64,000 nucleotides of DNA from Candidatus Atabeyarchaeum deiterrae (GTDB lineage: Archaea > Asgardarchaeota > Atabeyarchaeia > Atabeyarchaeales > Atabeyarchaeaceae): NCBI GenBank assembly GCA_037310415.1, contig CP147780.1:960001-1024000 (forward strand). Reading direction: 5' to 3'. Shown here one piece after another: positions 3,247 to 63,101 of the stretch. Every line of letters begins with the position of its first letter. Positions within the stretch are counted from its first letter, which is position 1. The position numbers and the translations under genes were made by a program. The notes beneath the pieces were generated by a model, which was not told the DNA's origin, made no database searches, and saw only the letters and a program-made list of their open reading frames with translations.

Positions 3247-4899
3247 TTAATCTTCTTCTCCGCCTGCTTTGCCACCGGGAGGCTTACCAGCACCGCCTGG
3301 GCCTCTAGCCTTCCCTGAAGCTATTACGTCATCGATTTTGAGGAGCATTTCTGCAGCTTCGGTTGCCGACTTTATTGATTGTATCTTGACTCTTAGTGGC
3401 TCCAATACGTTAAGGTCGGACATATTAGCGATTTTGTTTTGGTCGTCCAAGACGTTAACTCCCGCCCAGTGTTCTCCCTTGTCATGGCGTTTTCTCAGTT
3501 CGCCGAGAACTTCCAATACGTCGAATCCGGCGTTTTCGGCTAGTGTCTTTGGAATTATTTCTACGGCGTTTGCAAATGATCTGACAGCTAGCTGTTCTCT
3601 GCCGGTTAGTGTATCTGCATATACCTTTAGTTGCCTCGAGAGTTCCAGCTCAGGTGCTCCACCACCCGGAACCATTTTTCCGTCTTCGATGGCGTTTCTT
3701 ACGACACAGACGGCGTCGTGGAAAGCTCTCTCGGTCTCGGCAACAATCCTCTCTGTTCCGCCTCTGAGTAGTATGTTTACAGCTTTCGGAGATTTGCACC
3801 CCTCAATGAAAGTCATCTTGTCGTCTCCGATCTTCCGTTCCTCGACACTCTCAGCGTAACCCAAGTCTTCACTTGCCAAATCATCTATCGTGTTAGCTGT
3901 CTTGGCTCCTGTTGCTTTTGCGAGCTTTTCCATGTCGGACTCCTTAATCCTACGGATCGCCATTATACCTTCTTTTGCCAAGTAGTGTTGCGCTACATCA
4001 TCTATCCCTTTCTGGCAAAGAACTACGTTTGCTCCGACTTCTTTGATCTTAACAACCATTCCCTTCAGTATATTTGTCTCCTCGTCCAAGAATGAGCGCA
4101 TCTTGGTTGGGTCGGTTATGTTGATCTTCGCGGTAACTTCAGTCTTCTCAACTTCAAGCGGGCAGGAAAGTAATGCTATCTTGGCATCATTGATGAGTTT
4201 AGGCATTCCTGAATGAACGACTTCCTTGTCCAGTACAATTCCGTTGATCAGTTGAGTGTCATTTGTAGCTCCGCCTTGCTTCTTGTCAACCTTCACAAAG
4301 TTGATGTCGGCCCTCAGTGTGCCATCGACTTTCTCCGTTATCTGTTTCACAGCCTTGACGGCAAGATCCGCCAGGAAATCAGCAGACCCTGCGACTAGCT
4401 TGCTTCTCATTGAGGTTTTCGCTATTTTCATGAGAGTTTCGTCGTCGTCAAATTCCACCGGCATACCGATCCCGTCGAGGATCTCAAGTGACTTGGCCAA
4501 ACCTTTTCTATATCCGTCCAGTACGACTGTTGGGTGTAGCCCCATGTTTATTAGTTCCTCTGCTTCCTTGAGTAGGGCAGCTGAGATTATAACTGCTGAT
4601 GTTGTTCCGTCTCCAGTCTCGTTGTCTACAGACTTCGCGACTTGAACCATCATCTTCGCTGCTGGGTGCTGAACATCCATTTCTTTAAGTATTGTTGCTC
4701 CGTCGTTTGTTATGGTTACGTCGCCCATTGTGTCTACAAGCATCTTATCCATGCCTTTTGGGCCAAGAGACGTCTTGATAGTCTCTCCGATTACACGAGC
4801 AGCCATTATGTTTGCTCGTTGCGCATCTTTACCCGTACTTCTATTCGAGCCTTCTCTGAGTATCAGAACGGGTGTTCCCTCACTTGTTCTCATTCCCAT
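3247..4899 (-). CDS. ths: Thermosome (group II chaperonin), second subunit
   Basis: [26 protein letters not shown]; tandem paralogue of 1511..3196. Confidence 0.97.
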
Positions 4900-5005
4900 A
4901 GTATCTGTCCACCTCTATACTTGTTGTTTGTTTAGACTTAATGGAATACTGAAAGGAAAACTGCACTGCACACACTACATTCTGTTTGTGCATCAAGATA
5001 CCGAA

Positions 5006-5029
5006 TAGAACTTCTATATAAACATTTCG
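5006..5029 (-). promoter_or_regulatory. BRE/TATA promoter of the thermosome operon with an overlapping palindrome
   Basis: Minus strand CGAAATG-TTTATATA (5029-5015); palindrome TAGAA-C-TTCTA at 5006-5016 overlaps the downstream edge of the TATA box. Confidence 0.55.
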
Positions 5030-5113
5030 AATTAGGCTTTGTGCATTCATTTTTGGGACAATAAGAAGAGAAGTGGAATGCAGCGCGCAGAACCGAGAAA
5101 GGAATCTCGCGGT

Positions 5114-5674
5114 TCACTTGGCGGAACTTGTTGTCAGCTCGGAGGCTATCGCTTCAAGAATGCAGATAGCGGCTATGTCGAATACCGTCCGTTTGGATGA
5201 TGGGTAACTCCCTGTAAGCTGACTACTCAGATAAGTTTCTTCGTCTTCGGGTTCAATTGATTCAGATTTGATAGCAAGGAGGGCGTCAGCCAGCTTACCT
5301 ATCGGAGAATCCTCCGCTGAAGTAACTGCAACTATTCTTGCCTGAACCTTTTCCTTCGCTATCTTGACAGCCTCGAGTACCAATGGAGTCCTACCGGTAT
5401 CCGTTATTGCTATAAATATATCGTTCTTCTCAACTGCAGAAGTAATGGTTTCCCCAACGACAAAGACATTATAAGAGAGTCCTGCAAGTTGCATGGCTAG
5501 CGCTCTGGCAACCAGACCTGACGGTCCCTCGCCCATCAGGAAAACCTTTCTATTATTCTTCTTAGCATCACGTAGAAGTGATATTATCTTCTTGACTCGA
5601 GTTTCATCAAGGGAGCTGATAGCTTCCTTAACGTCATCAACTATGTGTTGCGCCACTGACAGAGATTTGCTCAA
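5114..5674 (-). CDS. SIS-domain protein, 6-phospho-3-hexuloisomerase (PHI/HxlB)-like, degenerate motifs
   Basis: KVFLMGEGPSGLVARALAMQL and VFVVGETIT match the PHI family, but the canonical GxGRSG and SGSGET motifs are altered. Confidence 0.8.
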   Translation of the reverse strand: MSKSLSVAQHIVDDVKEAISSLDETRVKKIISLLRDAKKNNRKVFLMGEGPSGLVARALAMQLAGLSYNVFVVGETITSAVEKNDIFIAITDTGRTPLVLEAVKIAKEKVQARIVAVTSAEDSPIGKLADALLAIKSESIEPEDEETYLSSQLTGSYPSSKRTVFDIAAICILEAIASELTTSSAK

Positions 5675-5903
5675 TAGGGTCCCACCACACCGAATAAGAC
5701 GAGAAAAGTTAAGCGCCCAGATTTCCTTTAGACATTTATCAAGAATGTATATTTAAATAGTTTCTCAAGGTAGTCTCTTGTCCTACTTAGTGAAACTGAG
5801 CGCTTAAAGACTATGAGACACTGGTCTTTCCTTTCTTCTTGGAAAAGTTAATTAGAAAGTAATCTTTTAGTGCCATGAGAAGTCCACAGGAGCTGAGAAA
5901 AAA

Positions 5904-6197
5904 ATGGCGTCTTCAAAGGCTGAAAAAGAACCTGAATCGAAGATGGGCAAAGGAGACGGGAAAGAACTCGCGTCACTTGTACTTGCTGCCATCGACTCCG
6001 AGCCGCATAAACCCCATGCAATAGTCAGCATCTTGAAGGAGAGATACGATCAGAACGCCGTTTTGAAGGCGTTGCTGGCGCTTGAGAAAGACGGCAGAGT
6101 TCAGAGAGACGGTAAGAAGGCCTGGATCGCAAAAGGTAAAGAGAGACCGAAGAAGGAGAAGGAGAAGGAGAAGGAGAAGGAGAAGGAGAAGAAATAG
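5904..6197 (+). CDS. Small winged-helix-like protein with (KE)n tail
   Basis: ATG with upstream GGAG; VLKALLALEKDGRVQRDGKKAW resembles the wHTH recognition helix and wing. Confidence 0.6.
   Translation: MASSKAEKEPESKMGKGDGKELASLVLAAIDSEPHKPHAIVSILKERYDQNAVLKALLALEKDGRVQRDGKKAWIAKGKERPKKEKEKEKEKEKEKK
6153..6191 (+). repeat. Perfect hexamer microsatellite (AAGGAG)x6 encoding KE repeats
   Basis: Directly visible in the sequence. Confidence 0.95.
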
Positions 6198-6314
6198 ACA
6201 GGTTCCGGCGGATATATTTTCGGTCTCGCTTCTTTTGGCTGCAGTGGTCAGAACACGGATGGTTACGCCGCCAAGTTTGCCACGTTACGTTCAGTATCAA
6301 GCTGATGAGAGTAC

Positions 6315-9300
6315 CTACCATAGCTTGTAAGGCACGTTTTCCATGTATTCGTTCAACGGTATCAAATGAGACTTCACCCTGCGCTTGTTATTGCCATTCC
6401 TCAGAGATTCAGCACTCACTGCCTGAGCGAGTACTCTTGCGAGCTGCAAGTTGGTGAATACTGGAATGTTGAATTCAACTGCTTTTCTCCGCATTATGTA
6501 TTCGTCATCCATCATCGATGCATACTTGTCCATCGTGCTTGCAGATGGGACATTGATTATGATATCCAACTTGCGGTTGGTGATGTAATCTAATAGATTT
6601 GGCTTTCTGAAGGGCTCGCCGATCTTGTACAGAACTTCTACTTCCAACCCGAGGGCTCTCAAAGCCTCAGCAGTGTGCTCTGTTGCGTACACTTCATAAC
6701 CCGCTTCTTCGAAAGCCCTGACAATTGGAATCACTTCCTCCTTCAGTCTCTTCCCGCCGACACTAACGAAGAGCTTGCCGCCATTTGTCGGTATATAGGT
6801 TTCAGCGGAGTGGAGGCTCATCAGAAGCGTATTATGCAGGTCATCTCCAATACAAGCAACCTCTCCAGTACTCATCATCTCGACGCTCAGTATTGTGTCG
6901 GCTCCATCTAATCGCATGAATGAGAACTGAGGAACTTTGACTGCAAAGTGACTTGGGAGAGTCAGCTTCTTCGGGAGGTTGTAACTACTGAGTTTCCTTC
7001 CCAACATGAATGCCGTCGCCAAGAATATCAAGTTAATACCAGTTGTCTTGGAAACAAAGGGGAGGCTTCGAGATGCGCGCAGATTGCACTCGATGACAGA
7101 CACCTGTCCATCTTTGACCAGGTACTGAACATTGAAAGGCCCACAGATCCTTAGAGCCTTGGCTATCTTGGTGGTGTATTCTTCTAAAGTACATATTATG
7201 TTATCCTCAAGCGAGGTGGCAGGGATCGTCATCGTTGCGTCGCCGCTGTGAACACCAGCTGACTCAATATGCTCGATTATCGCGCCTATCAAAACGTCTT
7301 CCCTATCGCATACTGCATCCACTTCACACTCTTTCGCATTCTCAATGAATTTGCTGATTACAACAGGATGGTCTTCAGAAACTTGAGTAGCGAGTCTGAG
7401 GAAACTATTGAGTTGTTCCTCGTCTATGGCTACTCGCATAGCTGCACCAGACAACACATATGATGGCCTTACTAAGACTGGAAATCCCATTTCACGAGCG
7501 AACTTCTTGGCGTCTTCTATTTTGACGAGTTTCATCCATTTTGGCTGAGGGATGTCAAGTGAAATCAAAAGAGAGCTGAATTTCGATCTGTCCTCAGATC
7601 TGTCGATGTCTTCGGCTGCCGTTCCAAGTATCGGAATCTCGGATTTAGACAAGGGCAGCGCTAGATTGTTGGGGGTCTGACCTCCCACGCTAACAATGAC
7701 TCCATAAGGTTTCTCCTTTTCACAGATATCAGAAACCCTCTCGAAGCTAAGTTCTTCGAAATACAGTTTGTCAGCGATGTCATAATCAGTTGAAACAGTC
7801 TCGGGATTACAGTTGATAACAACAACTTGGCCCACGCCCAGTTTCTTCAATGACCAAACCGCATTTACGCACGAGTTGTCAAATTCCACGGATGCGCCAA
7901 TCCTATAAGTCCCAGAACCCAGCACCAAGACCTTCTTGTCAGCAAAGTCGAAAGAAATGTCGTCCTCCGTTCCTCCATAAGTTAAGTAAAGATAGTTTGT
8001 CTGCGCTTCCCACTCGGCTGCCAAAGTGTCGATCTGTCTAACAATAGGCGTTATCCCCAACGATTTTCTCAGCTGCCTGACAACGCCCTCTGAGGTGCCA
8101 AGACAACGTGCAATTTGAAGATCTGAGAAGCCCAGTTCCTTTGCTTCACGCAGATATCTGTGTTCCGTGCCACGAGTCTCACTGTCCAGGTGGTTCTTTA
8201 ACCTAAGCTCTCTCTCCTTCTCGATTATTCCGGAGATTTTGTGCAAAAAGAATTGATCTATGCCAGTTAACTTGTTTATCTTCTGAACGCTGAATCCCAG
8301 CTTGAGTGCCTTCACTATCTTGAATAGACGCTCATCAGTGGGATTTGCAAGCGCATCCTCCAGTTTCTCGGTGCTTTCATGCTCATCTTCTTCATAATTG
8401 CAGACGAGTCCGATTTTCCCGATCTCAAGCATTCTCACTGCTTTCTGTATTGCTTCTTCAAAACAGGTTCCAATACCCATTACTTCGCCGACTGATTTCA
8501 TTTGGGTGCCAATATGTCGATTAGCTTTTGGAAACTTCTGTAAGTCCCATCTGGGAATCTTAACCACGATATAATCCATTGCCGGCTCGAAACAAGCCGT
8601 GGTGATCTGAGTCACCTTGTTTGTCAGTTCGAGAAGAGTGTACCCTATTGCCAGCTTTGCTGCAATGAATGCTAATGGATACCCCGTTGCCTTTGAGGCT
8701 AATGCGGACGACCTTGACAGGCGCGAATTTACTTCTATCACTCGGTACTCGTCAGAAGTTGGACTCAACGCAAATTGAACGTTGCATTCCCCAACTATCT
8801 TGAGAACCCGCACGACTCGAAAGGCTACATCTCTGAGTAGCTGGTATTCATTGTCATTAAGAGTCTGAGAAGGTGCGACGACGATCGAGTCGCCTGTGTG
8901 TACCCCCATAGGGTCGAAGTTCTCCATGTTGCAGACTGCAATGCAATTATCAGCATAGTCGCGACAAATCTCGTACTCAATTTCCTTCCAGTGCCCCAGA
9001 TATTCCTCGACAAGGATTTTCTGAGCCATGCTCTGGGCAAGTCCTCGACTAGCTATCTCTCTGAGTTCCATTTCGCTATTAGCCACGCCAGATCCTTTGC
9101 CACCGAGCGTGTAAGCCACTCGAATCATGACTGGGTAGCCGATTCTCTCAGCTACTTTGACCGCCTCGTCTACCGAGGTCGCTATACTGCTTCTGGGAAC
9201 CGTAATATGCTCCTGGATCATAGTTTCGCGGAAACGTTCTCGGTCGTCAGCGACCTCAATCGATTCAATGGATATTCCAAGGACTTTTACATTATACTTC

Positions 9301-9626
9301 TCGAATAATCCGTGTTTCGCTGATTCATATCCACAGTTGAGTGCAGTTTGGCCACCGAATCCAAGGAGGATCCCGTCAGGTCTCTCACTTTCTAAAATTC
9401 GCTCCACATAATCTGTCTCAATCGGTACAAGATATACTCTGTCTGCTATCCTCGGATCCGTCTGAATTGTAGCAATGTTTGGGTTGATTAGGACAGTCTC
9501 GATTCCCTCTTCCTTGAGAGCTTTTAGTGCCTGCGAGCCTGAGTAGTCAAATTCGCCAGCTTCGCCAATCTTTATTGATCCGCTCCCGAGGACCATTACT
9601 TTCTTGATCCCAGGCATTCGAGGCAA
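6315..9626 (-). CDS. carB: Carbamoyl-phosphate synthase large subunit
   Basis: GEAGEFDYSGSQA, two ATP-grasp domains, C-terminal MGS domain. Confidence 0.98.
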   Translation of the reverse strand: MPRMPGIKKVMVLGSGSIKIGEAGEFDYSGSQALKALKEEGIETVLINPNIATIQTDPRIADRVYLVPIETDYVERILESERPDGILLGFGGQTALNCGYESAKHGLFEKYNVKVLGISIESIEVADDRERFRETMIQEHITVPRSSIATSVDEAVKVAERIGYPVMIRVAYTLGGKGSGVANSEMELREIASRGLAQSMAQKILVEEYLGHWKEIEYEICRDYADNCIAVCNMENFDPMGVHTGDSIVVAPSQTLNDNEYQLLRDVAFRVVRVLKIVGECNVQFALSPTSDEYRVIEVNSRLSRSSALASKATGYPLAFIAAKLAIGYTLLELTNKVTQITTACFEPAMDYIVVKIPRWDLQKFPKANRHIGTQMKSVGEVMGIGTCFEEAIQKAVRMLEIGKIGLVCNYEEDEHESTEKLEDALANPTDERLFKIVKALKLGFSVQKINKLTGIDQFFLHKISGIIEKERELRLKNHLDSETRGTEHRYLREAKELGFSDLQIARCLGTSEGVVRQLRKSLGITPIVRQIDTLAAEWEAQTNYLYLTYGGTEDDISFDFADKKVLVLGSGTYRIGASVEFDNSCVNAVWSLKKLGVGQVVVINCNPETVSTDYDIADKLYFEELSFERVSDICEKEKPYGVIVSVGGQTPNNLALPLSKSEIPILGTAAEDIDRSEDRSKFSSLLISLDIPQPKWMKLVKIEDAKKFAREMGFPVLVRPSYVLSGAAMRVAIDEEQLNSFLRLATQVSEDHPVVISKFIENAKECEVDAVCDREDVLIGAIIEHIESAGVHSGDATMTIPATSLEDNIICTLEEYTTKIAKALRICGPFNVQYLVKDGQVSVIECNLRASRSLPFVSKTTGINLIFLATAFMLGRKLSSYNLPKKLTLPSHFAVKVPQFSFMRLDGADTILSVEMMSTGEVACIGDDLHNTLLMSLHSAETYIPTNGGKLFVSVGGKRLKEEVIPIVRAFEEAGYEVYATEHTAEALRALGLEVEVLYKIGEPFRKPNLLDYITNRKLDIIINVPSASTMDKYASMMDDEYIMRRKAVEFNIPVFTNLQLARVLAQAVSAESLRNGNNKRRVKSHLIPLNEYMENVPYKLW

Positions 9627-9641
9627 TCATGTTCTCCCTCC

Positions 9642-10802
9642 TCAACCCGCCTTCCTAACCCATCCAGCGAATACGTCAAAAAGGAATTCAAGCTCGCTCG
9701 GACCGGGTGAATGCTCCGGGTGATGCTGAATGGACATCGCCTTCATTGATTCATGCCTGATCCCTTCAACGGTTCTGTCATTCGCGTTCAGAAACGAAAC
9801 AGATAGACCGGTCTTCTCAAGTGAGTTCGCGTCAACAGCAAATCCGTGATTTGCGCTTGATATGTAGCAGCGCCCTGAGTGCAAGTCAATTATCGGGGAA
9901 TTAACGCTCCGATGACCAAACTTCAACTTATACGTCGAACCGCCTAATGACAAAGCGAAGATCTGGTTTCCGAGACATACCGAAAACATTGGCAGCCTGT
10001 CTGCAAGTAATTTGCTGACAGTTTCAATTGTTCTGACACACACCTTTGGATCGCCAGGACCGTTGCTGACCACAAATCCCTGAGGTCCGTACTCAAGAAT
10101 CTCGTCTTCGCCCGTACTAGGCGGAACCCTGACAACCTTTAGATTTCTCTCAAGTAGTTCTCTTAGGATCGACTTCTTGGCACCACAATCTATCAAAACG
10201 ACAGTTGGTTTGTCTTTCTCATCACTTTCTCCATATATTACGGGCTCCTTGACTGACACTTGAGCAACAAGGTCCCTTTTGTTTGGGTCGTCAATGCTAC
10301 AAACATCTTTCAATAGACGGCTGATGTCGGCCTCCTCGTCTTCCTCAAAGACTTCAACCATGCCCAACATGACACCGTGGACTCGCAATCGCTTAGTCAA
10401 GGCCCTTGTATCAATTCCATATATGCCAGGTATGCCCTCAGACCTCAGCCATCCGTCGAGTGATGTAGAAGAGGACCAATGGCTTGGAGATTTGCACACC
10501 TCATGTACGACAAGAGCCCTTACCTTGATTGAATCGGACTCAAACCATTTTGGAAGATTCCATGAATCAACCTCTTTGAGCTGGGGGACTCCATAGTTGC
10601 CAACCAGAGGATAAGTGTATACCAGAATTTGTCCCCAATAGGACGGATCTGTGAGTGCCTCGTTATACCCATACATGGCCGTGTTGAAGACGACCTCTCC
10701 CCCAACTTTGCGAGAGGCACCAAAAGCAAAACCTTGGAAGACAGTTCCATCTTCGAGAACAAGGGCAGCATTCCTTCTCCCTTGATTCCCAGACTTCTCC
10801 AA
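9642..10802 (-). CDS. carA: Carbamoyl-phosphate synthase small subunit
   Basis: GEVVFNT, LTDPSY, SNGPGDP, CLGNQ, HPE. Confidence 0.98.
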   Translation of the reverse strand: MEKSGNQGRRNAALVLEDGTVFQGFAFGASRKVGGEVVFNTAMYGYNEALTDPSYWGQILVYTYPLVGNYGVPQLKEVDSWNLPKWFESDSIKVRALVVHEVCKSPSHWSSSTSLDGWLRSEGIPGIYGIDTRALTKRLRVHGVMLGMVEVFEEDEEADISRLLKDVCSIDDPNKRDLVAQVSVKEPVIYGESDEKDKPTVVLIDCGAKKSILRELLERNLKVVRVPPSTGEDEILEYGPQGFVVSNGPGDPKVCVRTIETVSKLLADRLPMFSVCLGNQIFALSLGGSTYKLKFGHRSVNSPIIDLHSGRCYISSANHGFAVDANSLEKTGLSVSFLNANDRTVEGIRHESMKAMSIQHHPEHSPGPSELEFLFDVFAGWVRKAG

Positions 10803-33063: not shown

Positions 33064-33990
33064 TTGCGCGCAAAGGCATTTTGCCCAGGTCACATAACAG
33101 GTTTCTTCGAGATCTGCGACGAACTCAGTGATCCACTTAGACGTGGATCACGTGGCGCAGGTGTATCGATAACAAAGGGAGTACTTACAGAGGTGACAAT
33201 CGAGGAATCAAGTTCAACTAAGGTGCAGAGTTACATAAATGGTAAACTATCTCTAGCTCCAGTAACAAGAAAAGTAGTCAGCCAGATGTTTGCGTTACGG
33301 AAGGATAGAAGGGATTGGCAAGTGTCAGTCAGACACGATTCACAGGTGCCTGTCGGATGTGGTATCGGCTCAAGCGGTGCGGGAGCATGGGGTACTGCTC
33401 TTGCTCTGAATTACCTATTCCAACTGAATTTGACTCATGACAGGATTGGACAAGTAGCTCATCAAGCCGAAGTTGATGAGAAGACGGGACTTGGCACAGT
33501 TCTTGCGCAGCAAAAAGGAGGAATTGAAATACGAACGAGTCCAGGTGCTCCAGGAATCGGTCATGCGGATCAACTGCCATTCAACCCAGATCTACGAATA
33601 GTCTACAGTTCGATTGGTCCCATCTCAACAAGAGCCATGCTCTCCGATCCTGCCGTAAAAGCAAAAATCAACGAGTTTGGTGCAGAATACGTTCAACAAT
33701 TATCGAACAATGCTTCTCCCAAAGAACTTATGAGTCTATCCAGACGATTCGCAGAACAAACTCAACTACTGTCAAGAGAATTGAGAATAGGCTTGGAGTT
33801 GCTTGATGAACATGGATTCCGTGACTCCAGCATGGCCTTATTTGGAGAGACGATCTTCAGCCTCGTGTGGATAGAAGAGGTTGAGACCGTAGCTGACGTC
33901 CTCAGACAATGGAACCAAAAAGGTGAAACTCATTCAGCTGAGATCGACGTGATTGGAGCAAGGTTAGTGGAGTGCGAAAGAGATGTCTGA
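33064..33990 (+). CDS. pok: Pantoate kinase (GHMP family)
   Basis: AFCPGHITGFF, GSRGAG, PVGCGIGSSGA, AEV...TGLGTV, GAPG. Confidence 0.93.
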   Translation: MRAKAFCPGHITGFFEICDELSDPLRRGSRGAGVSITKGVLTEVTIEESSSTKVQSYINGKLSLAPVTRKVVSQMFALRKDRRDWQVSVRHDSQVPVGCGIGSSGAGAWGTALALNYLFQLNLTHDRIGQVAHQAEVDEKTGLGTVLAQQKGGIEIRTSPGAPGIGHADQLPFNPDLRIVYSSIGPISTRAMLSDPAVKAKINEFGAEYVQQLSNNASPKELMSLSRRFAEQTQLLSRELRIGLELLDEHGFRDSSMALFGETIFSLVWIEEVETVADVLRQWNQKGETHSAEIDVIGARLVECERDV

Positions 33991-34777
33991 GATCCCTGAA
34001 ACACATCCTAGATCAGCTTCGCTGAGAATAAGGGAGCGTCTAATAGAAGGATTCAAACAAGGTTATGTCGCAATGGCAGGTTTGATCGCTCATGGTCGGG
34101 GTGAAGCATTCGACTATTTAATTGGAGAGTTAAGCATCGACGCGGCTCTGGTTGCAGCGAAGGTGGGCGCAGCTGCGCTATTGATTGCGAAGCATCCAGT
34201 CATAAGTGTCAATGGCAACTTAGCAGCTCTGGCGGCGAGGGAAACGATCGAGCTCGCACAGCTGACTAACTCGAAGACTGAAGTCAACCTCTTTTACAGA
34301 ACGCCTGAACGCGAATTGATCATTGAAGGTGTCTTGAAGGAAGCAGGCGCTTCTGAGGTTCTGGGAGTTCAAGACTCAGCAAGCGCGACCATACCAGAAC
34401 TTGATAGCAGAAGGAGAAGAGTGGATCCCCGCGGAATTCTTGTTGCGGACGTTGTTCTCGTCCCTATGGAGGATGGAGACAGAACTGAGGCCTTGCGAAA
34501 AATGGGTAAGACTGTGATAGCGATTGATTTGAATCCAATTAGTCGGACAGCTAAGGCTGCAAGCATAACTATCGTTGACAATGTTGTGAGAGCCATGCCA
34601 AACCTCGTACTCGAGGCAAGCAAGTTGAAAAGCGAAGGAAAGAAGTCAGAACTCGAGAGGCTGGTCAAAGGATTCGACAATAGGAAGAATCTTGTAGATT
34701 GTCTTTCTCAAATCTGGAATGGAATTTCAAGATTAAAGAAGGACGGTTTTCCTTCCACATTTGATGAAGATGTTTAA
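33983..34777 (+). CDS. pps: 4-phosphopantoate--beta-alanine ligase (phosphopantothenate synthetase)
   Basis: HPRSASL, GLIAHGRGEAFDYLIGE, SVNGN, EVNLFYRT, EDGDRTEAL. Confidence 0.96.
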   Translation: MSEIPETHPRSASLRIRERLIEGFKQGYVAMAGLIAHGRGEAFDYLIGELSIDAALVAAKVGAAALLIAKHPVISVNGNLAALAARETIELAQLTNSKTEVNLFYRTPERELIIEGVLKEAGASEVLGVQDSASATIPELDSRRRRVDPRGILVADVVLVPMEDGDRTEALRKMGKTVIAIDLNPISRTAKAASITIVDNVVRAMPNLVLEASKLKSEGKKSELERLVKGFDNRKNLVDCLSQIWNGISRLKKDGFPSTFDEDV

Positions 34778-34869
34778 TACTGATTCTGGCAATAGTATTG
34801 TACCTTCAGTAATTGAACGAATAAGGAATATGTTCACAATCCGTGATTCTGGGAGGCGTCAGACTAGCA

Positions 34870-36183
34870 ATGGGTGAATCCAAAGAGCAACGAAAACCCA
34901 TTCTTCAAGTCGCTCTTGACTTTGAGAACCTGCACCGTGCGGTCCAAATAGCATCTGAAGCGGTCAAGGGCGGAGCTGACTGGCTTGAAGCTGGGACCCC
35001 CCTGATCAAGAGCGAAGGTTTGCAGGCCGTAAGAGAATTTAGAAAGCGATTCCCTGACAAGGTGATAGTCGCTGACATGAAGACCATGGACACTGGCAGG
35101 TTTGAGGTAGAGATAGCTGCCAAGGCTGGAGCTCAAATAGTGATTATACTCGCGACCGCCGATGACAGCACAATCAAGGAGGCAGTTGAAGCTGGTCGCA
35201 ACTACGGCGCTCAAATAATGGTCGACTTGCTTAATGTCAACGATATGGTGTCTAGGGCGGTAGAATTGGAAAAGTTGGGTGTTGACTACATTTGCGTGCA
35301 CATAGGCATCGACCAACAGATGCGAGGCATGAAAGCTGAGAATGTGATCAAGCAAGTTGCAGAGGTTGTCCATACTCCCATAGCTGCAGCCGGTGGCGTG
35401 AACTCTGAAAACGCTCCGACCTTGGTTGAGGCTGGTGCCCAGATAGTGATTGTTGGGGGCGCAGTGACAAAAGCTGAAAACGCTGAGGAAGCGGCTCGAA
35501 CGCTGAAGAAGACAATGCTGACAGGGAAGCCAATAGCCACGAAACTCTACAAGAAGTACGCTGAGGAAGAGATTGTGAAAGTGTTCAAGATGTGTTCAAC
35601 GCCAAACATATCTGACGCTATGCACAGACGCGGCGAGATGAAAGGTATCGTTCCGATTGCGCCTGGTTTCAAAATGGTTGGAAAAGCATTGACTGTGAGA
35701 ACATATCCAGGCGATTGGGCAAAGCCTGTTGAAAGCATAGATGTTGGTAGCAGGGGGGACGTCATAGTCATTGAAGCTGGTGGGCAGGGTCCAGCCGTGT
35801 GGGGAGAACTTGCATCATGGAGCTGCAAGACACAGGGTATCGAAGGAGTCGTGATAGACGGTGCCATAAGAGACGTTGAAGACATTAGAGAGCTGAAGTT
35901 ACCTGCATTTTCACGACTAATCAGTCCAACGGCAGGCGAACCGAAAGGATTCGGCGAAATAAACATTGACATAACATGCGGAGGAGTCAAGGTTAGACCC
36001 GGCGACTACATTATTGGTGACGACAACGGAGTCGTAGTAGTCCCAAAAGAATCGGCTGTAGAAATCGCCAACAGGTCAATTGACGTAAGAGAGAAGGAAA
36101 ACAGACTGCGAGAAGAGATCAAGAGAGGCAGTACTCTCTCGAAAGTCCAGAAATTGAGGCAGTGGGAAAAAGTTATCGGGTGA
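34870..36183 (+). CDS. 3-hexulose-6-phosphate synthase fused to an RraA/HMG-aldolase domain
   Basis: HPS motifs LQVALD, EAGTPLIKSEG, ADMKTMDTG, HIGIDQQ; RraA motifs STPNISDAM, WGEL, DGAIRD, PGDYIIGDDNGVVVVP. Confidence 0.93.
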   Translation: MGESKEQRKPILQVALDFENLHRAVQIASEAVKGGADWLEAGTPLIKSEGLQAVREFRKRFPDKVIVADMKTMDTGRFEVEIAAKAGAQIVIILATADDSTIKEAVEAGRNYGAQIMVDLLNVNDMVSRAVELEKLGVDYICVHIGIDQQMRGMKAENVIKQVAEVVHTPIAAAGGVNSENAPTLVEAGAQIVIVGGAVTKAENAEEAARTLKKTMLTGKPIATKLYKKYAEEEIVKVFKMCSTPNISDAMHRRGEMKGIVPIAPGFKMVGKALTVRTYPGDWAKPVESIDVGSRGDVIVIEAGGQGPAVWGELASWSCKTQGIEGVVIDGAIRDVEDIRELKLPAFSRLISPTAGEPKGFGEINIDITCGGVKVRPGDYIIGDDNGVVVVPKESAVEIANRSIDVREKENRLREEIKRGSTLSKVQKLRQWEKVIG

Positions 36184-36251
36184 AGTTGACTCTCAGAGCT
36201 ACTCACTTCGCTTTCGTTCTATTCGCCAGACAATAATGGTCTATCGGTGAA

Positions 36252-37211
36252 GTGGTTTTGCGATTAGTTGTTCTTGGAGCAGGCGCTATAGGCAGCTTGT
36301 TCGGCGGTCTGCTATCAGAGGCTGGTTTAGATGTTGTATTGATAGGAAGGTCTTCGCATGTTAAAGCCATCAAATCCCATGGACTACACATCAATGGAGT
36401 CAGCGGCCGCAGAATACTGAAACTCAGGTCTGAGGCGAAGGTTTCAGCAATAAAGGAAAAGTCGGATATCGTTTTATGCACAGTCAAGGCTTATGATACG
36501 AAACAAGCAGCCATCGATGCGAAGCCTCTGATTGGAGAAGACTCTCTGTTTTTATGCATCCAGAATGGTCTCGATGTCGAGAGAGAAGCTGCCGAAGTGT
36601 TCGGAGCAAGTAGAACAGAACGAGGAGTCACTAACAATGGCGTCCTATTCACAAAACCAGGTTACATCAATCACACAGGCTTGGGAGACACCCTCATCGG
36701 CTGTTCCAATAAACAATGGCAAAAAAGAATCGATGGGCTGGTAGAATCCCTGAACAAAGTGGGTCTACCTTCCAAGGTGACCGGCGATATTCAGAAAGTC
36801 GTCTGGTCAAAGGTTCTCATCAATGTAGGTATAAACGCAATAGGCGCATTAACACACCTCAGGAATGGAGACCTTCTAGCGAGACCGCACCTGAAGGACT
36901 TAATGAGGTCGGCTGTAAATGAGGGATTGAATGTCGCTGACAAGCTTGGGCTTAACTTTAGAGAAGAGGACATCGTCGAGAAAACCTTTAAGGTTGCTAA
37001 GGCAACATCCTTGAATAAGAATTCGATGCTTCAGGACTTGGAAAAAGGTCGAAGAACAGAAATAGATTTCATAAACGGAGCCATCGAGAAGACTGGGAAG
37101 ACCATCGGAGTGCCCACACCAGTCAATAGTACGCTCACAGCATTGTTGAAGGGACTAGAATCTAGGATCGGGAAAGAGCAGACGCAGACAGGAACAATTT
37201 CAGCCTTTTGA
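36252..37211 (+). CDS. panE: 2-dehydropantoate 2-reductase
   Basis: GAGAIG, TVKAYD, QNG, WSKVLIN..IN, SMLQD...RRTEIDFING. Confidence 0.95.
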   Translation: MVLRLVVLGAGAIGSLFGGLLSEAGLDVVLIGRSSHVKAIKSHGLHINGVSGRRILKLRSEAKVSAIKEKSDIVLCTVKAYDTKQAAIDAKPLIGEDSLFLCIQNGLDVEREAAEVFGASRTERGVTNNGVLFTKPGYINHTGLGDTLIGCSNKQWQKRIDGLVESLNKVGLPSKVTGDIQKVVWSKVLINVGINAIGALTHLRNGDLLARPHLKDLMRSAVNEGLNVADKLGLNFREEDIVEKTFKVAKATSLNKNSMLQDLEKGRRTEIDFINGAIEKTGKTIGVPTPVNSTLTALLKGLESRIGKEQTQTGTISAF

Positions 37212-37227
37212 AAAGGAGAGAAGGTTC

Positions 37228-38394
37228 TTGGAAGAAGCGGGTATTGCGACAGAGAGAGTCCTAAAAGAACTAGAGGAACACACCAGAGACGACTTCACAA
37301 ATGACTCAGGTAGAATACTTGGCTCCATGATATGTAAGCCTCACGAATTCGCGGTCGAAGTCTACATGAAGTACATTGAGAAGAATCTTGGAGATCCAGG
37401 ACTGTACCCAGGCGTAGGTAAGATTGAAAAAGAGGCTATTCGAATGATAGGGTCGCTACTCAGTCACCCCAAAGCTTACGGTAACATTGTGACTGGAGGT
37501 TCTGAGGCCAATTTGATGGCGATGGCAGTTGCTCGGAATATGAGAAAAGACATACGCAGACCGGAGGTCATTCTTCCAAGATCAGCCCATGTTTCCTTTG
37601 CAAAAGCGGGTTGTCTACTTGGTCTCCGCGAAAGAAAGGTCGGACTGACTAGATTCTTTGAAATGAATGTAGACGAATTACGAAAATCAATCACGAAGAA
37701 CACTGTCGCCATTGTTGCCGTGGCAGGCACGACGCTTCTGGGCGTGGTTGACCCAATTAAAGAGATCTCCGAGATAGCTGACGAAAACCAGATATATCTC
37801 CATATAGACGCTGCTTTCGGTGGATTCGTAATTCCTTTTCTTAAAGAGCTCGGCTATTCTGCGCCAGAGTTTGACTTCAAACTCAGAGGAGTCTCTTCGA
37901 TAACTGCAGATCCACATAAGATGGGCTTTTGCCCGATTCCTTCAGGAGGAATACTCTTCAGGAAACAGAACTACGTCAAATACAACAGTGTCAAGGTTCC
38001 ATATCTTGCCGGAGGGATTGCAACCCAAGGAACGATAGTAGGTACGCGGAGCGGGGCATCCGCGTGTGCTGTTTGGGCCCTTATGAAGCACCTTGGTCGA
38101 GAAGGATTTAGGGAACCTGTTAAACACTGCATGGAACTCACGCACTACCTTGCAGATGAAATCGAACGCTTGGATGGTGTTGAACTCACGGTTCCACCCA
38201 CAGTTAACATTATAGGGATCAGATCAAAGGACTACGCAATCCGATCCATCTGGAAGAAACTGAGAGACATAGGTTGGGCCGTTGGTGGACTTAGAGAGTC
38301 ACTTCGCGTCGTGATTCTCCCCCACCATCGGCGCGAGCATATTGACGCTTTCCTTACGGATCTGAAAACTGTGCTGCGCGACATGGGAAAATAG
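37228..38394 (+). CDS. mfnA: PLP-dependent L-aspartate/L-tyrosine decarboxylase
   Basis: ILGSMIC.PH, NLGDPGL, GGSEAN, HIDAAFGG, DPHKMG. Confidence 0.93.
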   Translation: MEEAGIATERVLKELEEHTRDDFTNDSGRILGSMICKPHEFAVEVYMKYIEKNLGDPGLYPGVGKIEKEAIRMIGSLLSHPKAYGNIVTGGSEANLMAMAVARNMRKDIRRPEVILPRSAHVSFAKAGCLLGLRERKVGLTRFFEMNVDELRKSITKNTVAIVAVAGTTLLGVVDPIKEISEIADENQIYLHIDAAFGGFVIPFLKELGYSAPEFDFKLRGVSSITADPHKMGFCPIPSGGILFRKQNYVKYNSVKVPYLAGGIATQGTIVGTRSGASACAVWALMKHLGREGFREPVKHCMELTHYLADEIERLDGVELTVPPTVNIIGIRSKDYAIRSIWKKLRDIGWAVGGLRESLRVVILPHHRREHIDAFLTDLKTVLRDMGK

Positions 38395-60574: not shown

Positions 60575-61141
60575 TTGGTGATCGAGTTGGAGAGGAAACC
60601 TCCTTCATCACTCACAAGCCCGAAGTTCGTCGAAATAATCAAGATCCTGATGATTGGAGATGGTGGTGTCGGGAAGACAACGCTATTACATCGACTAGTA
60701 ACTGGTGGATACTCAGAACAGTCAATGACGATCGGGGTTGGATTTGCTTCCAAGGTCATGAGAACTCTTGATGGCAGGGAAGTGAAGTTGCAGGTGTGGG
60801 ATGTCGCTGGGCAAAGCAGGTTCAGACTTCTTGTCCCTTCTGCAAGGGGTGGTGCAAAGGGCATAATTCTTGTTTTTGATCTCTCCAGACCGTCAACGTT
60901 TGTGCGGCTCGATGATTGGGTAAGACTCGCGAGAAGCGATTTGCCACCGGAAAGACATGTTCCGATTGTTCTTGTTGGTGCAAAATGCGACCTTGCAAGA
61001 AAAGTGTTGACCGAAGAAGCCAGAAGTTTCACAGCCAGGATGAAACTGGATGAATATATCGAGACGAGTTCCAAGGGTAATATCAATGTGGAGAGACCAT
61101 TTGAAAAGCTCCTTCAGCTCCTTGTTCAAAAACCGAGATAA
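60575..61141 (+). CDS. Rab-like small GTPase
   Basis: G1 GDGGVGKT, G2 TIGVGF, G3 WDVAGQ, G4 AKCD, G5 ETSSK; no C-terminal Cys motif. Confidence 0.92.
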   Translation: MVIELERKPPSSLTSPKFVEIIKILMIGDGGVGKTTLLHRLVTGGYSEQSMTIGVGFASKVMRTLDGREVKLQVWDVAGQSRFRLLVPSARGGAKGIILVFDLSRPSTFVRLDDWVRLARSDLPPERHVPIVLVGAKCDLARKVLTEEARSFTARMKLDEYIETSSKGNINVERPFEKLLQLLVQKPR

Positions 61142-61157
61142 CTGGTCTTATTGACTG

Positions 61158-61913
61158 CTAAGCTGGGGCTAGTTGCATCTTCCTAACGGCATTCATCGTC
61201 AATAGGTGGTAGTTCCGCATGAACTTCGCTCTGATGATTGCGTCGTCAATTCCACCTATGCCTGCCAGGTCTCCAATGAGGTCTCCTAGTGCGTGGTACA
61301 ACGAGTCTTCATTTGGTCCTTTTATGAAGGCTGTAACGGACTTTCCCACTTTCGACCTTAGTTCTGCGGGCAATCCAGACTCGGGATCGAATATCGCTTT
61401 AAGAGGGCCGAGACTAGCTAAATAGAGTTCAATGTCAAGTCCAGTTCCTTTTCGGGCTGGTCTTATCTCCAATCTGCCTCCATCCTCCGTCGTCACGACG
61501 ATGTCTTTGTCTATGGTCTTCTCGTCCCTTACGGCACCAGTATCAAAGACGTTCTCATTTGCTGTCAGTTCCACTAATCCTCCGCTTATAGTGCCGTCAG
61601 GTCCACCCAGCACTGCCGAGGGCTTCAGCATGAGTGAATACGCGGCCCGATGCTGGGGTCTGGAGAAGTCCCATTCTTGCTCGATCCCATCCACCAATGC
61701 ATCATGAATCCCACATATCCTCAAGGCCGCCAATGGATGTTCGACCGTGAAAGCATAGTTACCTCCGTCTCGTAGCGTAACGTTACTGTCTCCTCTCACG
61801 ACATATTTTGGGGAAGCCAAAATGTGGTTCATTACGATCCCAGTATTAGCCTCCGCTGGCAAGACATTGACGACAATGGTTTGCACTGCTTTTTTTAAAG
61901 TATGAAGATGAAT
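61158..61913 (-). CDS. LpxC-like zinc-dependent deacetylase
   Basis: HTLKKAV, LPAEANTGIV, TVEHPLAAL..CGI, HALGDLIGDL and a distal His; possible ATT start at 61913 (ORF track starts at 61886). Confidence 0.75.
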   Translation of the reverse strand: MHLHTLKKAVQTIVVNVLPAEANTGIVMNHILASPKYVVRGDSNVTLRDGGNYAFTVEHPLAALRICGIHDALVDGIEQEWDFSRPQHRAAYSLMLKPSAVLGGPDGTISGGLVELTANENVFDTGAVRDEKTIDKDIVVTTEDGGRLEIRPARKGTGLDIELYLASLGPLKAIFDPESGLPAELRSKVGKSVTAFIKGPNEDSLYHALGDLIGDLAGIGGIDDAIIRAKFMRNYHLLTMNAVRKMQLAPA

Positions 61914-61919
61914 ACCTTC

Positions 61920-63101
61920 TCACCTCCCCCCTGATTCTTGTCGGTCTTCTAGGGCTGCCACTTCGCACGGTATCCTAGCGAGGATCCTGGATGCCCGAAA
62001 AGCTTCTCCTACAATACCTAACTCGTTTTGCTCGTTGGTCAGAGTTAGATCTCCTGGACCAAATGCTACGACATCCTTTGCGAAACCAGTTGATTTCAAT
62101 TCCCTAGCTGAGATGGGAAAAGGTAGCCATTCAAAGATAGGATCAAACCCCGTTGACTTGAGAAATGCCTGAGACAGGGCAGCAACGATGGGGGAATGAG
62201 AATCTTCCCGGAATGGTTCTTCTTCGAATATTTCTTCGATGGATGTTTCGCACCCACTCCCCTTCGTAACTTCAACCACAACACTTGACAACTTGTCCTT
62301 AAAGTCGGTGTGCGAGAACTCTGGAGGAGTTGACGCGTAATACTCAATCTCAACAGGAATAGACTCTCCAATTATCGCGGGGTCGGTCGCCTTGATATGT
62401 GTGGGTGTCATCGTTGGATACCCGAGGAGGAATCTTGAAAGAATCAGGGGGGGCGCTTCACCCACCTCGACTGGATATATGCTGTGCTTCGGTCTCATTA
62501 TTTCATTCAAGTTCTCGCCAAATCTCATGAGTGCGTTCCAGGGGTTCTGGCCGAGCCACGGAAAAGCAGGGTGGTGTAGTTTGCCTTTAATGCATAACTT
62601 GAAGACTATGCATCCCTTCTGGACACTGCATGCTCTCAGACCTGTTGACTCCACGACAACGAGATGCGTTCCAAATATCGTGTTACCATAATCGCCTGCT
62701 GACGCTCCCTTGACAGGATCTACAGTATGTCTTTGATACTTGCGTTTCTCTGCCTCATCTCCCAAGATGACCAAGAACACGTCAGTCTGCGGGGGGCGGT
62801 CCTCAGATAATGTTTTCAAGGCAAGAGTTGCTGAAGCAATGTTGGCTGCGAGCAAACGTGAGTAAGTCTCGTTGTTGACTTGCCTATCTTCCCCTGAAGA
62901 AGATGCTACTGAGAATGTTTTCCTGGCAGTCACAAGGAAAGCCGTGGAAGGAGAGCGATCATGCCCTCTCACGACAAAATAACTCGCATTGCCGGTGCAT
63001 TTCGCTGGAATTCTCTGAATCCCCTTAAGAGATGAAAGATAGTCGTCAACCAAGAACCTGGCTTCGCCTTTCCCTAACGAATTCAAGATCTCGTGATACA
63101 A
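61920..63101 (-). CDS. M20 (ArgE/DapE)-fold protein with degenerate metal ligands
   Basis: Dimerisation domain KG...F.L.IKGK..H...PW.G.N and C-terminal FGPGD present; HxD, RGxxDxKG and terminal His absent. Frame stays open upstream to about 63161. Confidence 0.75.
   Translation of the reverse strand: MYHEILNSLGKGEARFLVDDYLSSLKGIQRIPAKCTGNASYFVVRGHDRSPSTAFLVTARKTFSVASSSGEDRQVNNETYSRLLAANIASATLALKTLSEDRPPQTDVFLVILGDEAEKRKYQRHTVDPVKGASAGDYGNTIFGTHLVVVESTGLRACSVQKGCIVFKLCIKGKLHHPAFPWLGQNPWNALMRFGENLNEIMRPKHSIYPVEVGEAPPLILSRFLLGYPTMTPTHIKATDPAIIGESIPVEIEYYASTPPEFSHTDFKDKLSSVVVEVTKGSGCETSIEEIFEEEPFREDSHSPIVAALSQAFLKSTGFDPIFEWLPFPISARELKSTGFAKDVVAFGPGDLTLTNEQNELGIVGEAFRASRILARIPCEVAALEDRQESGGR

Follow-up and report, generated by a model that had tools for sequence, protein, structure and literature searches.

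The 64,000-nucleotide stretch of DNA analyzed here (the window) carries a gene for a protein modeled with the LpxC fold, which, with a probability of roughly 0.55, is the subunit carrying the active site of a heteromeric zinc amidohydrolase; its substrate would be an amide related to pantothenate, and possibly this vitamin itself. The M20-like neighbor of the gene and the clustering of the gene pair with pantothenate/CoA genes argue that the two proteins probably form a new two-subunit amide-cleaving enzyme rather than take part in lipid A synthesis. The M20-derived neighbor and the repeated clustering with pantothenate/CoA genes and transporters lay outside the reading of the first-pass annotation; they are the strongest clues, and both point to a pantothenate-related amide.

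The LpxC-like gene and its translation signals

The frame of the LpxC-like gene opens after the TGA stop at 61,922–61,920, reads IHLHTLKKAV… and ends with the stop at 61,160–61,158 (Table 1). Its first and only canonical start codon is the GTG at 61,886, from which a product of 242 aa would be translated. As the Met start (M-HLHTL) of 25 homologues of 252–253 aa aligned exactly with the ATT at 61,913, GGAGGTGA stands 6 nt upstream of this ATT and residues 1–5 are modeled by AlphaFold2 as a strand, the gene most likely begins at this near-cognate codon and occupies 61,158–61,913. Because GGAGGTGA overlaps the stop of the upstream M20-like gene and lies so close to the ATT, the LpxC-like gene is probably coupled translationally to that gene, and the same layout of Shine-Dalgarno sequence, stop and start was found in the relatives. 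At the aligned start position, ATA is found in the Atabeyarchaeia-1 chromosome, which is the closest complete relative, and ATG, GTG or TTG in all other relatives. In both Atabeyarchaeia genomes the near-cognate start lies 6 nt after a GGTGA motif containing the stop of the upstream gene, which suggests a reinitiation-type coupling or a deliberately low level of translation. The LpxC-like gene converges with a gene for a Ras-family small GTPase (Pfam Ras, 132 bits), and Ras/Arf genes flank the LpxC-like/M20-like pair in the related Asgard contigs L010 and L014, too; this arrangement is probably lineage synteny with no functional link.

Table 1. Positions of the genes, signals and residues discussed in the text (window coordinates unless a locus is named)
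Feature	Position	Strand	Remarks
LpxC-like gene	61158..61913	−	251 codons + stop; probable start ATT 61913–61911
Shine-Dalgarno-like GGAGGTGA	61920..61927	−	Contains the TGA stop of the upstream gene; 6 nt before ATT
Codons E58 + H59	61737..61742	−	Aligned with general base E78 and zinc ligand H79; invariant
Family-specific insertion, residues 81–99, WDFSRPQHRAAYSL...	61617..61673	−	Absent from canonical LpxC; predicted interface with the M20-like partner
T194	61332..61334	−	Aligned with oxyanion-stabilizing T191; Insert II, normally next, is deleted
HALGDLIGD helix	61269..61295	−	H207 and D211, putative zinc ligands; D215 aligned with D246; A208 replaces Lys239
H236	61206..61208	−	Aligned with general acid H265; invariant
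M20-derived partner gene	61920..63101	−	393 aa; lid/dimerization domain kept; HxD, GRGxxD and C-terminal His lost
Ras-family GTPase gene	60575–61141	+	
PoK	33073–33969	+	CoA-precursor cluster, 33073–38385 as a whole
PPS	33983–34747	+	Same cluster
PanE	36255–37181	+	Same cluster
MfnA-like decarboxylase	37228–38385	+	Same cluster
ATA at the aligned start, Atabeyarchaeia-1	L015 7001–7003		Near-cognate start
Module operon of G001	L039 (G001:C1:259000–273000) 4140–9642	−	
Haloarchaeal operon (example)	L018 2507–7777	+	One of L017–L028
LpxD-like gene	G000:C1:2499730–2500266; L002 1435–2355	−	Outside the window

Fold and active site

The AlphaFold2 model of the LpxC-like protein, computed with 25 homologues, had a pLDDT of 92.9. 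When this model was compared with the PDB by Foldseek, the best 50 matches were all LpxC (E about 4e-12), and its superposition on LpxC by VIA-align gave a Z score of 22.9 and an rmsd of 2.3 Å over 212–217 residues spanning the whole chain, while the best non-LpxC fold reached only Z 7.4. The nearest clusters in ESM Atlas feature and shape searches were likewise of the LpxC family. According to these models, the 251-aa protein has the LpxC fold, which bore out the kinship that the first-pass annotation had read from short motifs. The sequence itself is only 16–24% identical to LpxC. The Pfam LpxC profile scored 28.6 bits (cut-off 27) and matched residues 12–75 only, that is, 65 of its 268 positions, and the NCBIfam LpxC equivalog models gave 14–16 bits against cut-offs of 423–465. 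Searching solved structures with the single sequence found no LpxC; with the family profile LpxC was the only hit, a weak one (E 0.015), and hhalign of the family alignment against the single E. coli LpxC sequence gave a probability of 3.7%.

All motifs listed by the first-pass annotation were present in one open frame and in the order of LpxC: HTLKKAV (residues 4–10), PAEANTGIV (19–27), TVEH (56–59), HALGDLIGDL (207–216) and His236. Residue equivalences with E. coli LpxC were taken from MAFFT alignments and the structural superposition, by which E58/H59 were paired with E78/H79, H207 with H238, D211 with D242, D215 with D246, H236 with H265 and T194 with T191; the roles of the LpxC residues (E78 as general base, H79 as zinc ligand, etc.) follow the literature (PMC13342928). 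E58, H59, H207, D211, D215 and H236 were invariant in 35–42 relatives sharing only 24–68% identity (for E58 and H59, in alignments A2, A3, A4 and A6), and T194 was Thr or Ser throughout the family. In the alignment with E. coli LpxC, the columns without any variation were exactly these six. On these alignments, the conservation of the catalytic residues is far above chance expectation, and the reading that the catalytic Glu, the zinc-binding His and Asp and the downstream His are kept while a Lys has turned into Ala was confirmed. The Lys in question, Lys239, binds the diphosphate of UDP and the 6′-OH of the sugar in LpxC (PMC13342928); the position is occupied by Ala208 here, and by Ala, Ser or Thr across the family.

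The protein shares with LpxC (EC 3.5.1.108; Pfam PF03331) the two-domain beta-alpha-alpha-beta sandwich, the His, His and Asp zinc ligands, the Glu/His acid–base pair with its supporting Asp, and the Thr, while Lys239, the acyl tunnel of Insert II, the L18/H19 hairpin and the C-terminal tail are found in LpxC only. About 34 residues are deleted at Insert II, including the positions of the tunnel residues I198, C207, F212 and V217, and the model shows just a short helical turn (residues 195–198) where Insert II would be expected. The shortening in domain II proposed earlier was thereby located, but it is not the only change: stretches of about 10 and 8 residues have been lost close to the N-terminus (about 13–22 and about 39–46 of E. 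coli LpxC), the first deletion removing the tunnel residue L18 with the L18/H19 hairpin, the C-terminal tail is missing, and residue 78 is followed by an insertion of about 21 residues, in which the motif WDFxRPxHR is conserved. This segment, a predicted docking site, and the M20-like partner distinguish the protein from LpxC. The Insert I loop has a near-invariant Arg in most of the family, which is replaced by Asn or Cys in the Atabeya/Njord clade, thus the specificity of this clade may differ.

Distribution of the family

A profile search of 1.84 billion representative proteins yielded 44 LpxC-like clusters (50% identity), all of about 230–300 aa, and one canonical LpxC only, at the limit of E 1e-3. 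Judged from these sequences, the LpxC-like proteins constitute a small, separate and patchily distributed family and are not stray products of bacterial lpxC. The hosts belong to three Asgard families, the named ones including Atabeyarchaeia and Njordarchaeota relatives, and to a few cultured haloarchaea (Halorussus halobius, H. litoreus, Salinigranum salinum, Halobacterium bonnevillei and Saliphagus); some of the contigs are probably bacterial. Of 301 sampled Asgard genomes, 8 had the gene, which was present in every member of the three families and in none of the 27 other Asgard families; among Halobacteria, 6 of 301 genomes had it. The survey of homologues and neighborhoods thus revealed real archaeal orthologues and not the lone decaying bacterial transfer that the first-pass annotation had named as the contrary outcome. 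Literature searches for archaeal LpxC homologues, or for LpxC together with pantoate kinase, returned nothing relevant, and the Atabeyarchaeia genome paper does not mention LpxC or pantothenate. Among the ESM Atlas clusters, bacterial LpxC domains were also seen as parts of fusion proteins, with response-regulator receiver domains in Binatota and with sigma-54 activator AAA domains in Nitrospinota (381 members), suggesting further non-canonical uses of the LpxC fold.

The M20-like partner and the predicted complex

An M20-like gene adjoins the LpxC-like gene in nearly every member of the family and in every lineage with enough flanking DNA (the window, L010, L012, L014–L019, L021–L032 and L039–L042), the short contig L043 being the sole exception. 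In Pfam, the partner encoded in the window matched only M20_dimer (PF07687; 27.7 bits, cut-off 21), and it scored 57 bits on the DapE/ArgE subfamily model, the cut-off of which is 218. The motifs of the two-metal center of M20 enzymes we take, from what is known of DapE, to be HxD, the bridging Asp, Glu-Glu, a further Glu and a C-terminal His. When the partner was aligned with intact M20 proteins (alignment A5), HxD and GRGxxD were absent, the His was replaced by Asn and only the Glu of EPT/EST was kept. The partners of the Asgard members, L014 and L030 have lost HxD, GRGxxD and the C-terminal His, and those of the haloarchaea, L032, L041 and L042 are shorter degenerate copies of 278–339 aa (about 278 aa in the haloarchaea and L032, with a truncated catalytic domain). 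The partner in L012 is an intact M20, and a separate intact M20 is found near the haloarchaeal loci, L041 and L042.

Prediction of the complex of the two proteins gave a score of 0.83 (0.85, 0.83 and 0.83 in the individual runs), compared with 0.00 for the best of three controls; the runs shared at least 94% of their contacts, and the pLDDT of the partner was at least 91. In calibration, the mark was reached by 58 of 80 solved complexes and by 2 of 110 mismatched pairs, figures that apply only roughly here since the model was run with custom alignments. To our knowledge there is no solved LpxC–M20 complex, thus it is unlikely that the predictor reproduced a known one. On the side of the LpxC-like protein, the modeled interface consists of the Insert I strands (39–48), the new segment (81–95) and residues 196–199 at the site of Insert II, surfaces that flank the active-site cleft, and 11 of its 24 residues lie between 78 and 99. 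Of the 11 most conserved columns of the partner, 7 (C158, V160, H206, Y209, P210, F224 and W325) fall within its 31-residue interface (p 2.5e-6). The partner shares its lid/dimerization domain and overall layout with the ArgE/DapE-type M20 deacylases, DapE enzymes being its closest solved relatives (E 2e-18), but unlike in these enzymes, its most conserved residues are at the predicted contact with the LpxC-like protein and not at the M20 active site. The M20-like partner is therefore predicted by modeling to bind the LpxC-like protein and to cap its active-site cleft.

Gene neighborhoods

The pair was located within 8 kb of pantothenate/CoA genes (PoK, CoaBC, PPS, PanB/PanE, PanF or CoaX) in about 7 of 10 lineages, for which a rough chance estimate, assuming a generous 6% per lineage of having a CoA-gene neighbor, was p about 3e-7. 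The closed 1.4-Mb Asgard genome G001 has M20-like, ECF-S-like membrane protein, LpxC-like, PoK, gamma-carbonic-anhydrase-like and CoaBC genes in one operon, and in G009 the LpxC-like gene overlaps the only PoK of the genome. In L012, PanB and PanE are divergent upstream, a five-gene Dpp/Opp ABC operon lies downstream and PoK is 6 kb away, while a PoK-MfnA-PanE operon (L030) and PPS (L014) are each 3 kb from the pair. Type III PanK is directly downstream of the pair in L041, a bona fide PanF (426 bits, cut-off 328) and YhdT adjoin it in L042, and a PanF-like symporter scoring below the cut-off is adjacent in L032. In the window, the CoA-precursor cluster PoK-PPS-PanE-MfnA is 23–27 kb from the LpxC-like gene, so the pair is not adjacent to it. 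Similarly, no CoA genes were found within 7 kb of the pair at the haloarchaeal loci; aldehyde dehydrogenase, SDR and intact M20 genes stand there instead, together with the partner and LpxC-like genes and beside a peptide-type binding protein. In the haloarchaeal operon (L017–L028), the stops and starts overlap, the M20-like gene is truncated, and the binding protein beside it belongs to family 5. Type III PanK and PanC were found in none of eight holder genomes (G000, G012, the four of the small-genome Asgard family f2, G009 and the Halorussus genome G301), and PanB in none of the five Asgard holder genomes tested, which include that of the window.

The proposed reaction and its substrate

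From the conserved residues and by analogy with LpxC, we infer that the LpxC-fold protein would bind zinc via H59, H207 and D211, and that in amide hydrolysis E58 would be the general base and H236, supported by D215, the general acid, while the oxyanion would be stabilized by T194. Insert II with the acyl tunnel having been deleted, the gained conserved segment would dock the lid domain of the degenerate M20-like protein, which, in the modeled complex, would close the active-site cleft and help to form the substrate pocket. The substrate would be a small soluble amide of the pantothenate/CoA-precursor family. We infer this from the neighborhoods, which have pantothenate in common, as they encode its transporter, its kinase and enzymes by which its two halves are made or used. 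Pantothenate is accordingly the leading candidate, and the pantoate and beta-alanine released by its putative cleavage would both enter the PoK/PPS route of archaea; other candidates would be pantetheine and acyl- or carbamoyl-beta-alanine. Hydrolysis of pantothenate thus ranks first, that of other pantothenate-related amides next, followed by general peptide or acyl-amino-acid hydrolysis. Most archaea use PoK and PPS and have no pantothenate kinase (PMC6650551). Direct phosphorylation of imported pantothenate is not possible for them. The more specific proposal that the pair is a pantothenate amidohydrolase, by which archaea lacking pantothenate kinase would use environmental vitamin B5 and which in haloarchaea would open a degradation operon, is tentative, and the odds are against it in this narrow form.

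The classical degradation of pantothenate, reportedly described in the Snell papers of 1966, proceeds through an amidase, pantoate dehydrogenase and aldopantoate dehydrogenase. The haloarchaeal operon, in which SDR and aldehyde dehydrogenase genes are present, resembles this route. Kinetic work on the Pseudomonas pantothenase reportedly suggested an acyl-enzyme mechanism, unlike that of a zinc hydrolase. The pantothenase of Pseudomonas fluorescens (EC 3.5.1.22) catalyzes the hydrolysis of pantothenate to pantoate and beta-alanine, which is the favored reaction of the present proposal; neither a protein nor a gene has been assigned to it (PMC10393543). The Vanin-type pantetheinase of the nitrilase superfamily also cleaves the amide of a pantothenate derivative and recycles vitamin B5, but it is an animal enzyme of unrelated fold with a Cys-based mechanism.

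Several points count against the proposed amidohydrolase. The pair of the window is not beside CoA genes, nor are the haloarchaeal loci, and the ATT start may mean low expression. With pantothenate as substrate, the acyl pocket of LpxC would have to accept pantoyl and not acetyl, and in family f2, which has no PPS, simple hydrolysis of pantothenate would give no usable intermediate.

Alternative functions

The best surviving alternative, which we regard as unlikely, is a general amidohydrolase for peptides or N-acyl-amino acids that acts on imported peptides and is not dedicated to pantothenate. Dpp/Opp ABC transporters, an OPT transporter, intact M20 peptidases, a PmbA/TldD pair, an enolase-superfamily (MR_MLE) protein and an Amidohydro_3 protein encoded near the pair would fit such an enzyme, as would the descent of the partner from DapE/ArgE-type deacylases, but it leaves unexplained why PoK, CoaBC, PPS, PanB/PanE, PanF and CoaX recur beside the pair in independent lineages, and the family is far rarer in Asgard and haloarchaeal genomes than general peptidases.

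Considerably less probable is an enzyme that removes the acetyl group from a non-acylated N-acetyl sugar or sugar nucleotide, with UDP-GlcNAc, GlcNAc phosphates and chitobiose as conceivable substrates. LpxC is itself an N-acetyl-sugar deacetylase, RpiR, AP_endonuc_2 or Polysacc_deac_1 genes occur in some neighborhoods, and an LpxD-like N-acyltransferase is encoded elsewhere in the genome. Against these, the diphosphate- and sugar-binding Lys239 is replaced family-wide, glycosyltransferase and sugar-nucleotide genes are not conserved in the neighborhoods, the LpxD-like gene is 1.5 Mb away, and the conserved partner is a relative of deacylases of the amino-acid/peptide type. The first-pass annotation had proposed a zinc deacetylase for a different, possibly non-acylated, N-acetyl substrate; the zinc set of the protein is intact and the tunnel is gone, as that reading implied, but nothing points to an N-acetyl sugar or amino acid.

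Still fewer chances are given to the idea that in lineages without PPS the pair supplies the missing 4′-phosphopantothenate step, either by catalyzing a condensation or by setting free pantothenate, which a PoK-like kinase would then phosphorylate. PPS (PF02006) is otherwise common (243 of 268 genomes in Asgard archaea, 292 of 301 in haloarchaea), yet the small-genome Asgard family f2 (four genomes of 1.3–1.4 Mb, of which one is closed, with a completeness of 93–98%) lacks PPS, PanB, PanE, PanC and type III PanK while carrying PoK and CoaBC in one operon with the pair. PPS was not found in G009 or in two cultured Halorussus holders either (G301, which is Halorussus halobius, L018; and G495). 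Among haloarchaea, PPS is missing from 2 of 6 holders and 7 of 295 non-holders (Fisher p 0.011), the two Halorussus genomes not being independent, as both are probably of one genus. On the other side, formation of an amide bond without ATP is thermodynamically unfavorable, family f15 has neither PPS nor the pair, and the Atabeya genomes and 4 of the 6 haloarchaeal holders have both, so that PPS and the module are not strictly inverse in their occurrence. In the lineages lacking PPS, the module may do more than salvage.

A role in lipid A synthesis is excluded. The genome, a single contig of 2.76 Mb that is 97% complete, has only one LpxC-type gene, and a search for lpxA, lpxB and lpxD, which the first-pass annotation had put forward, found no lpxA above the cut-off, no lpxB and one LpxD-like N-acyltransferase below the cut-off (306 aa; 214 bits on TIGR01853, cut-off 242.5) with a weak LpxD N-terminal domain. 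With no lpxA above the cut-off and no lpxB, the LpxC-like protein is not for lipid A synthesis, and the earlier view that it acts elsewhere was upheld by these absences and by that of the tunnel. A genuine lipid A LpxC or a decaying bacterial transfer can be dismissed: the Pfam LpxC profile barely passes and some databases label relatives as LpxC, but that match is partial, the equivalog models score far below their cut-offs, tunnel, lpxA and lpxB are missing, and the reading frame is unbroken and has been conserved among archaeal lineages. The LpxD-like gene, unusual in an archaeon, adjoins an ATP-grasp gene and a gene for a 286-aa protein without family, and is unlinked to the LpxC-like gene.

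Biological significance

LpxC has been viewed as an enzyme with one purpose only, the synthesis of lipid A in Gram-negative bacteria, and as a target for antibiotics. Our models suggest that its catalytic scaffold has been reused outside lipid A synthesis, in archaea, where the acyl tunnel would have been exchanged for a surface docking a pseudo-enzyme. The LpxC-like protein would represent a new form of LpxC-fold zinc hydrolase, one that works with a pseudo-enzyme as its partner and probably serves vitamin B5/CoA-precursor metabolism. If the link to CoA is true, the amidohydrolase would give a gene to an orphan reaction of vitamin B5 metabolism that has been without one since the 1960s, would explain how archaea without pantothenate kinase salvage this vitamin, and would bear on the synthesis of 4′-phosphopantothenate in the small-genome Asgard family and the Halorussus strains that lack PPS. 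As the module is present in cultured Halorussus, Salinigranum, Saliphagus and Halobacterium bonnevillei, the idea is directly testable.
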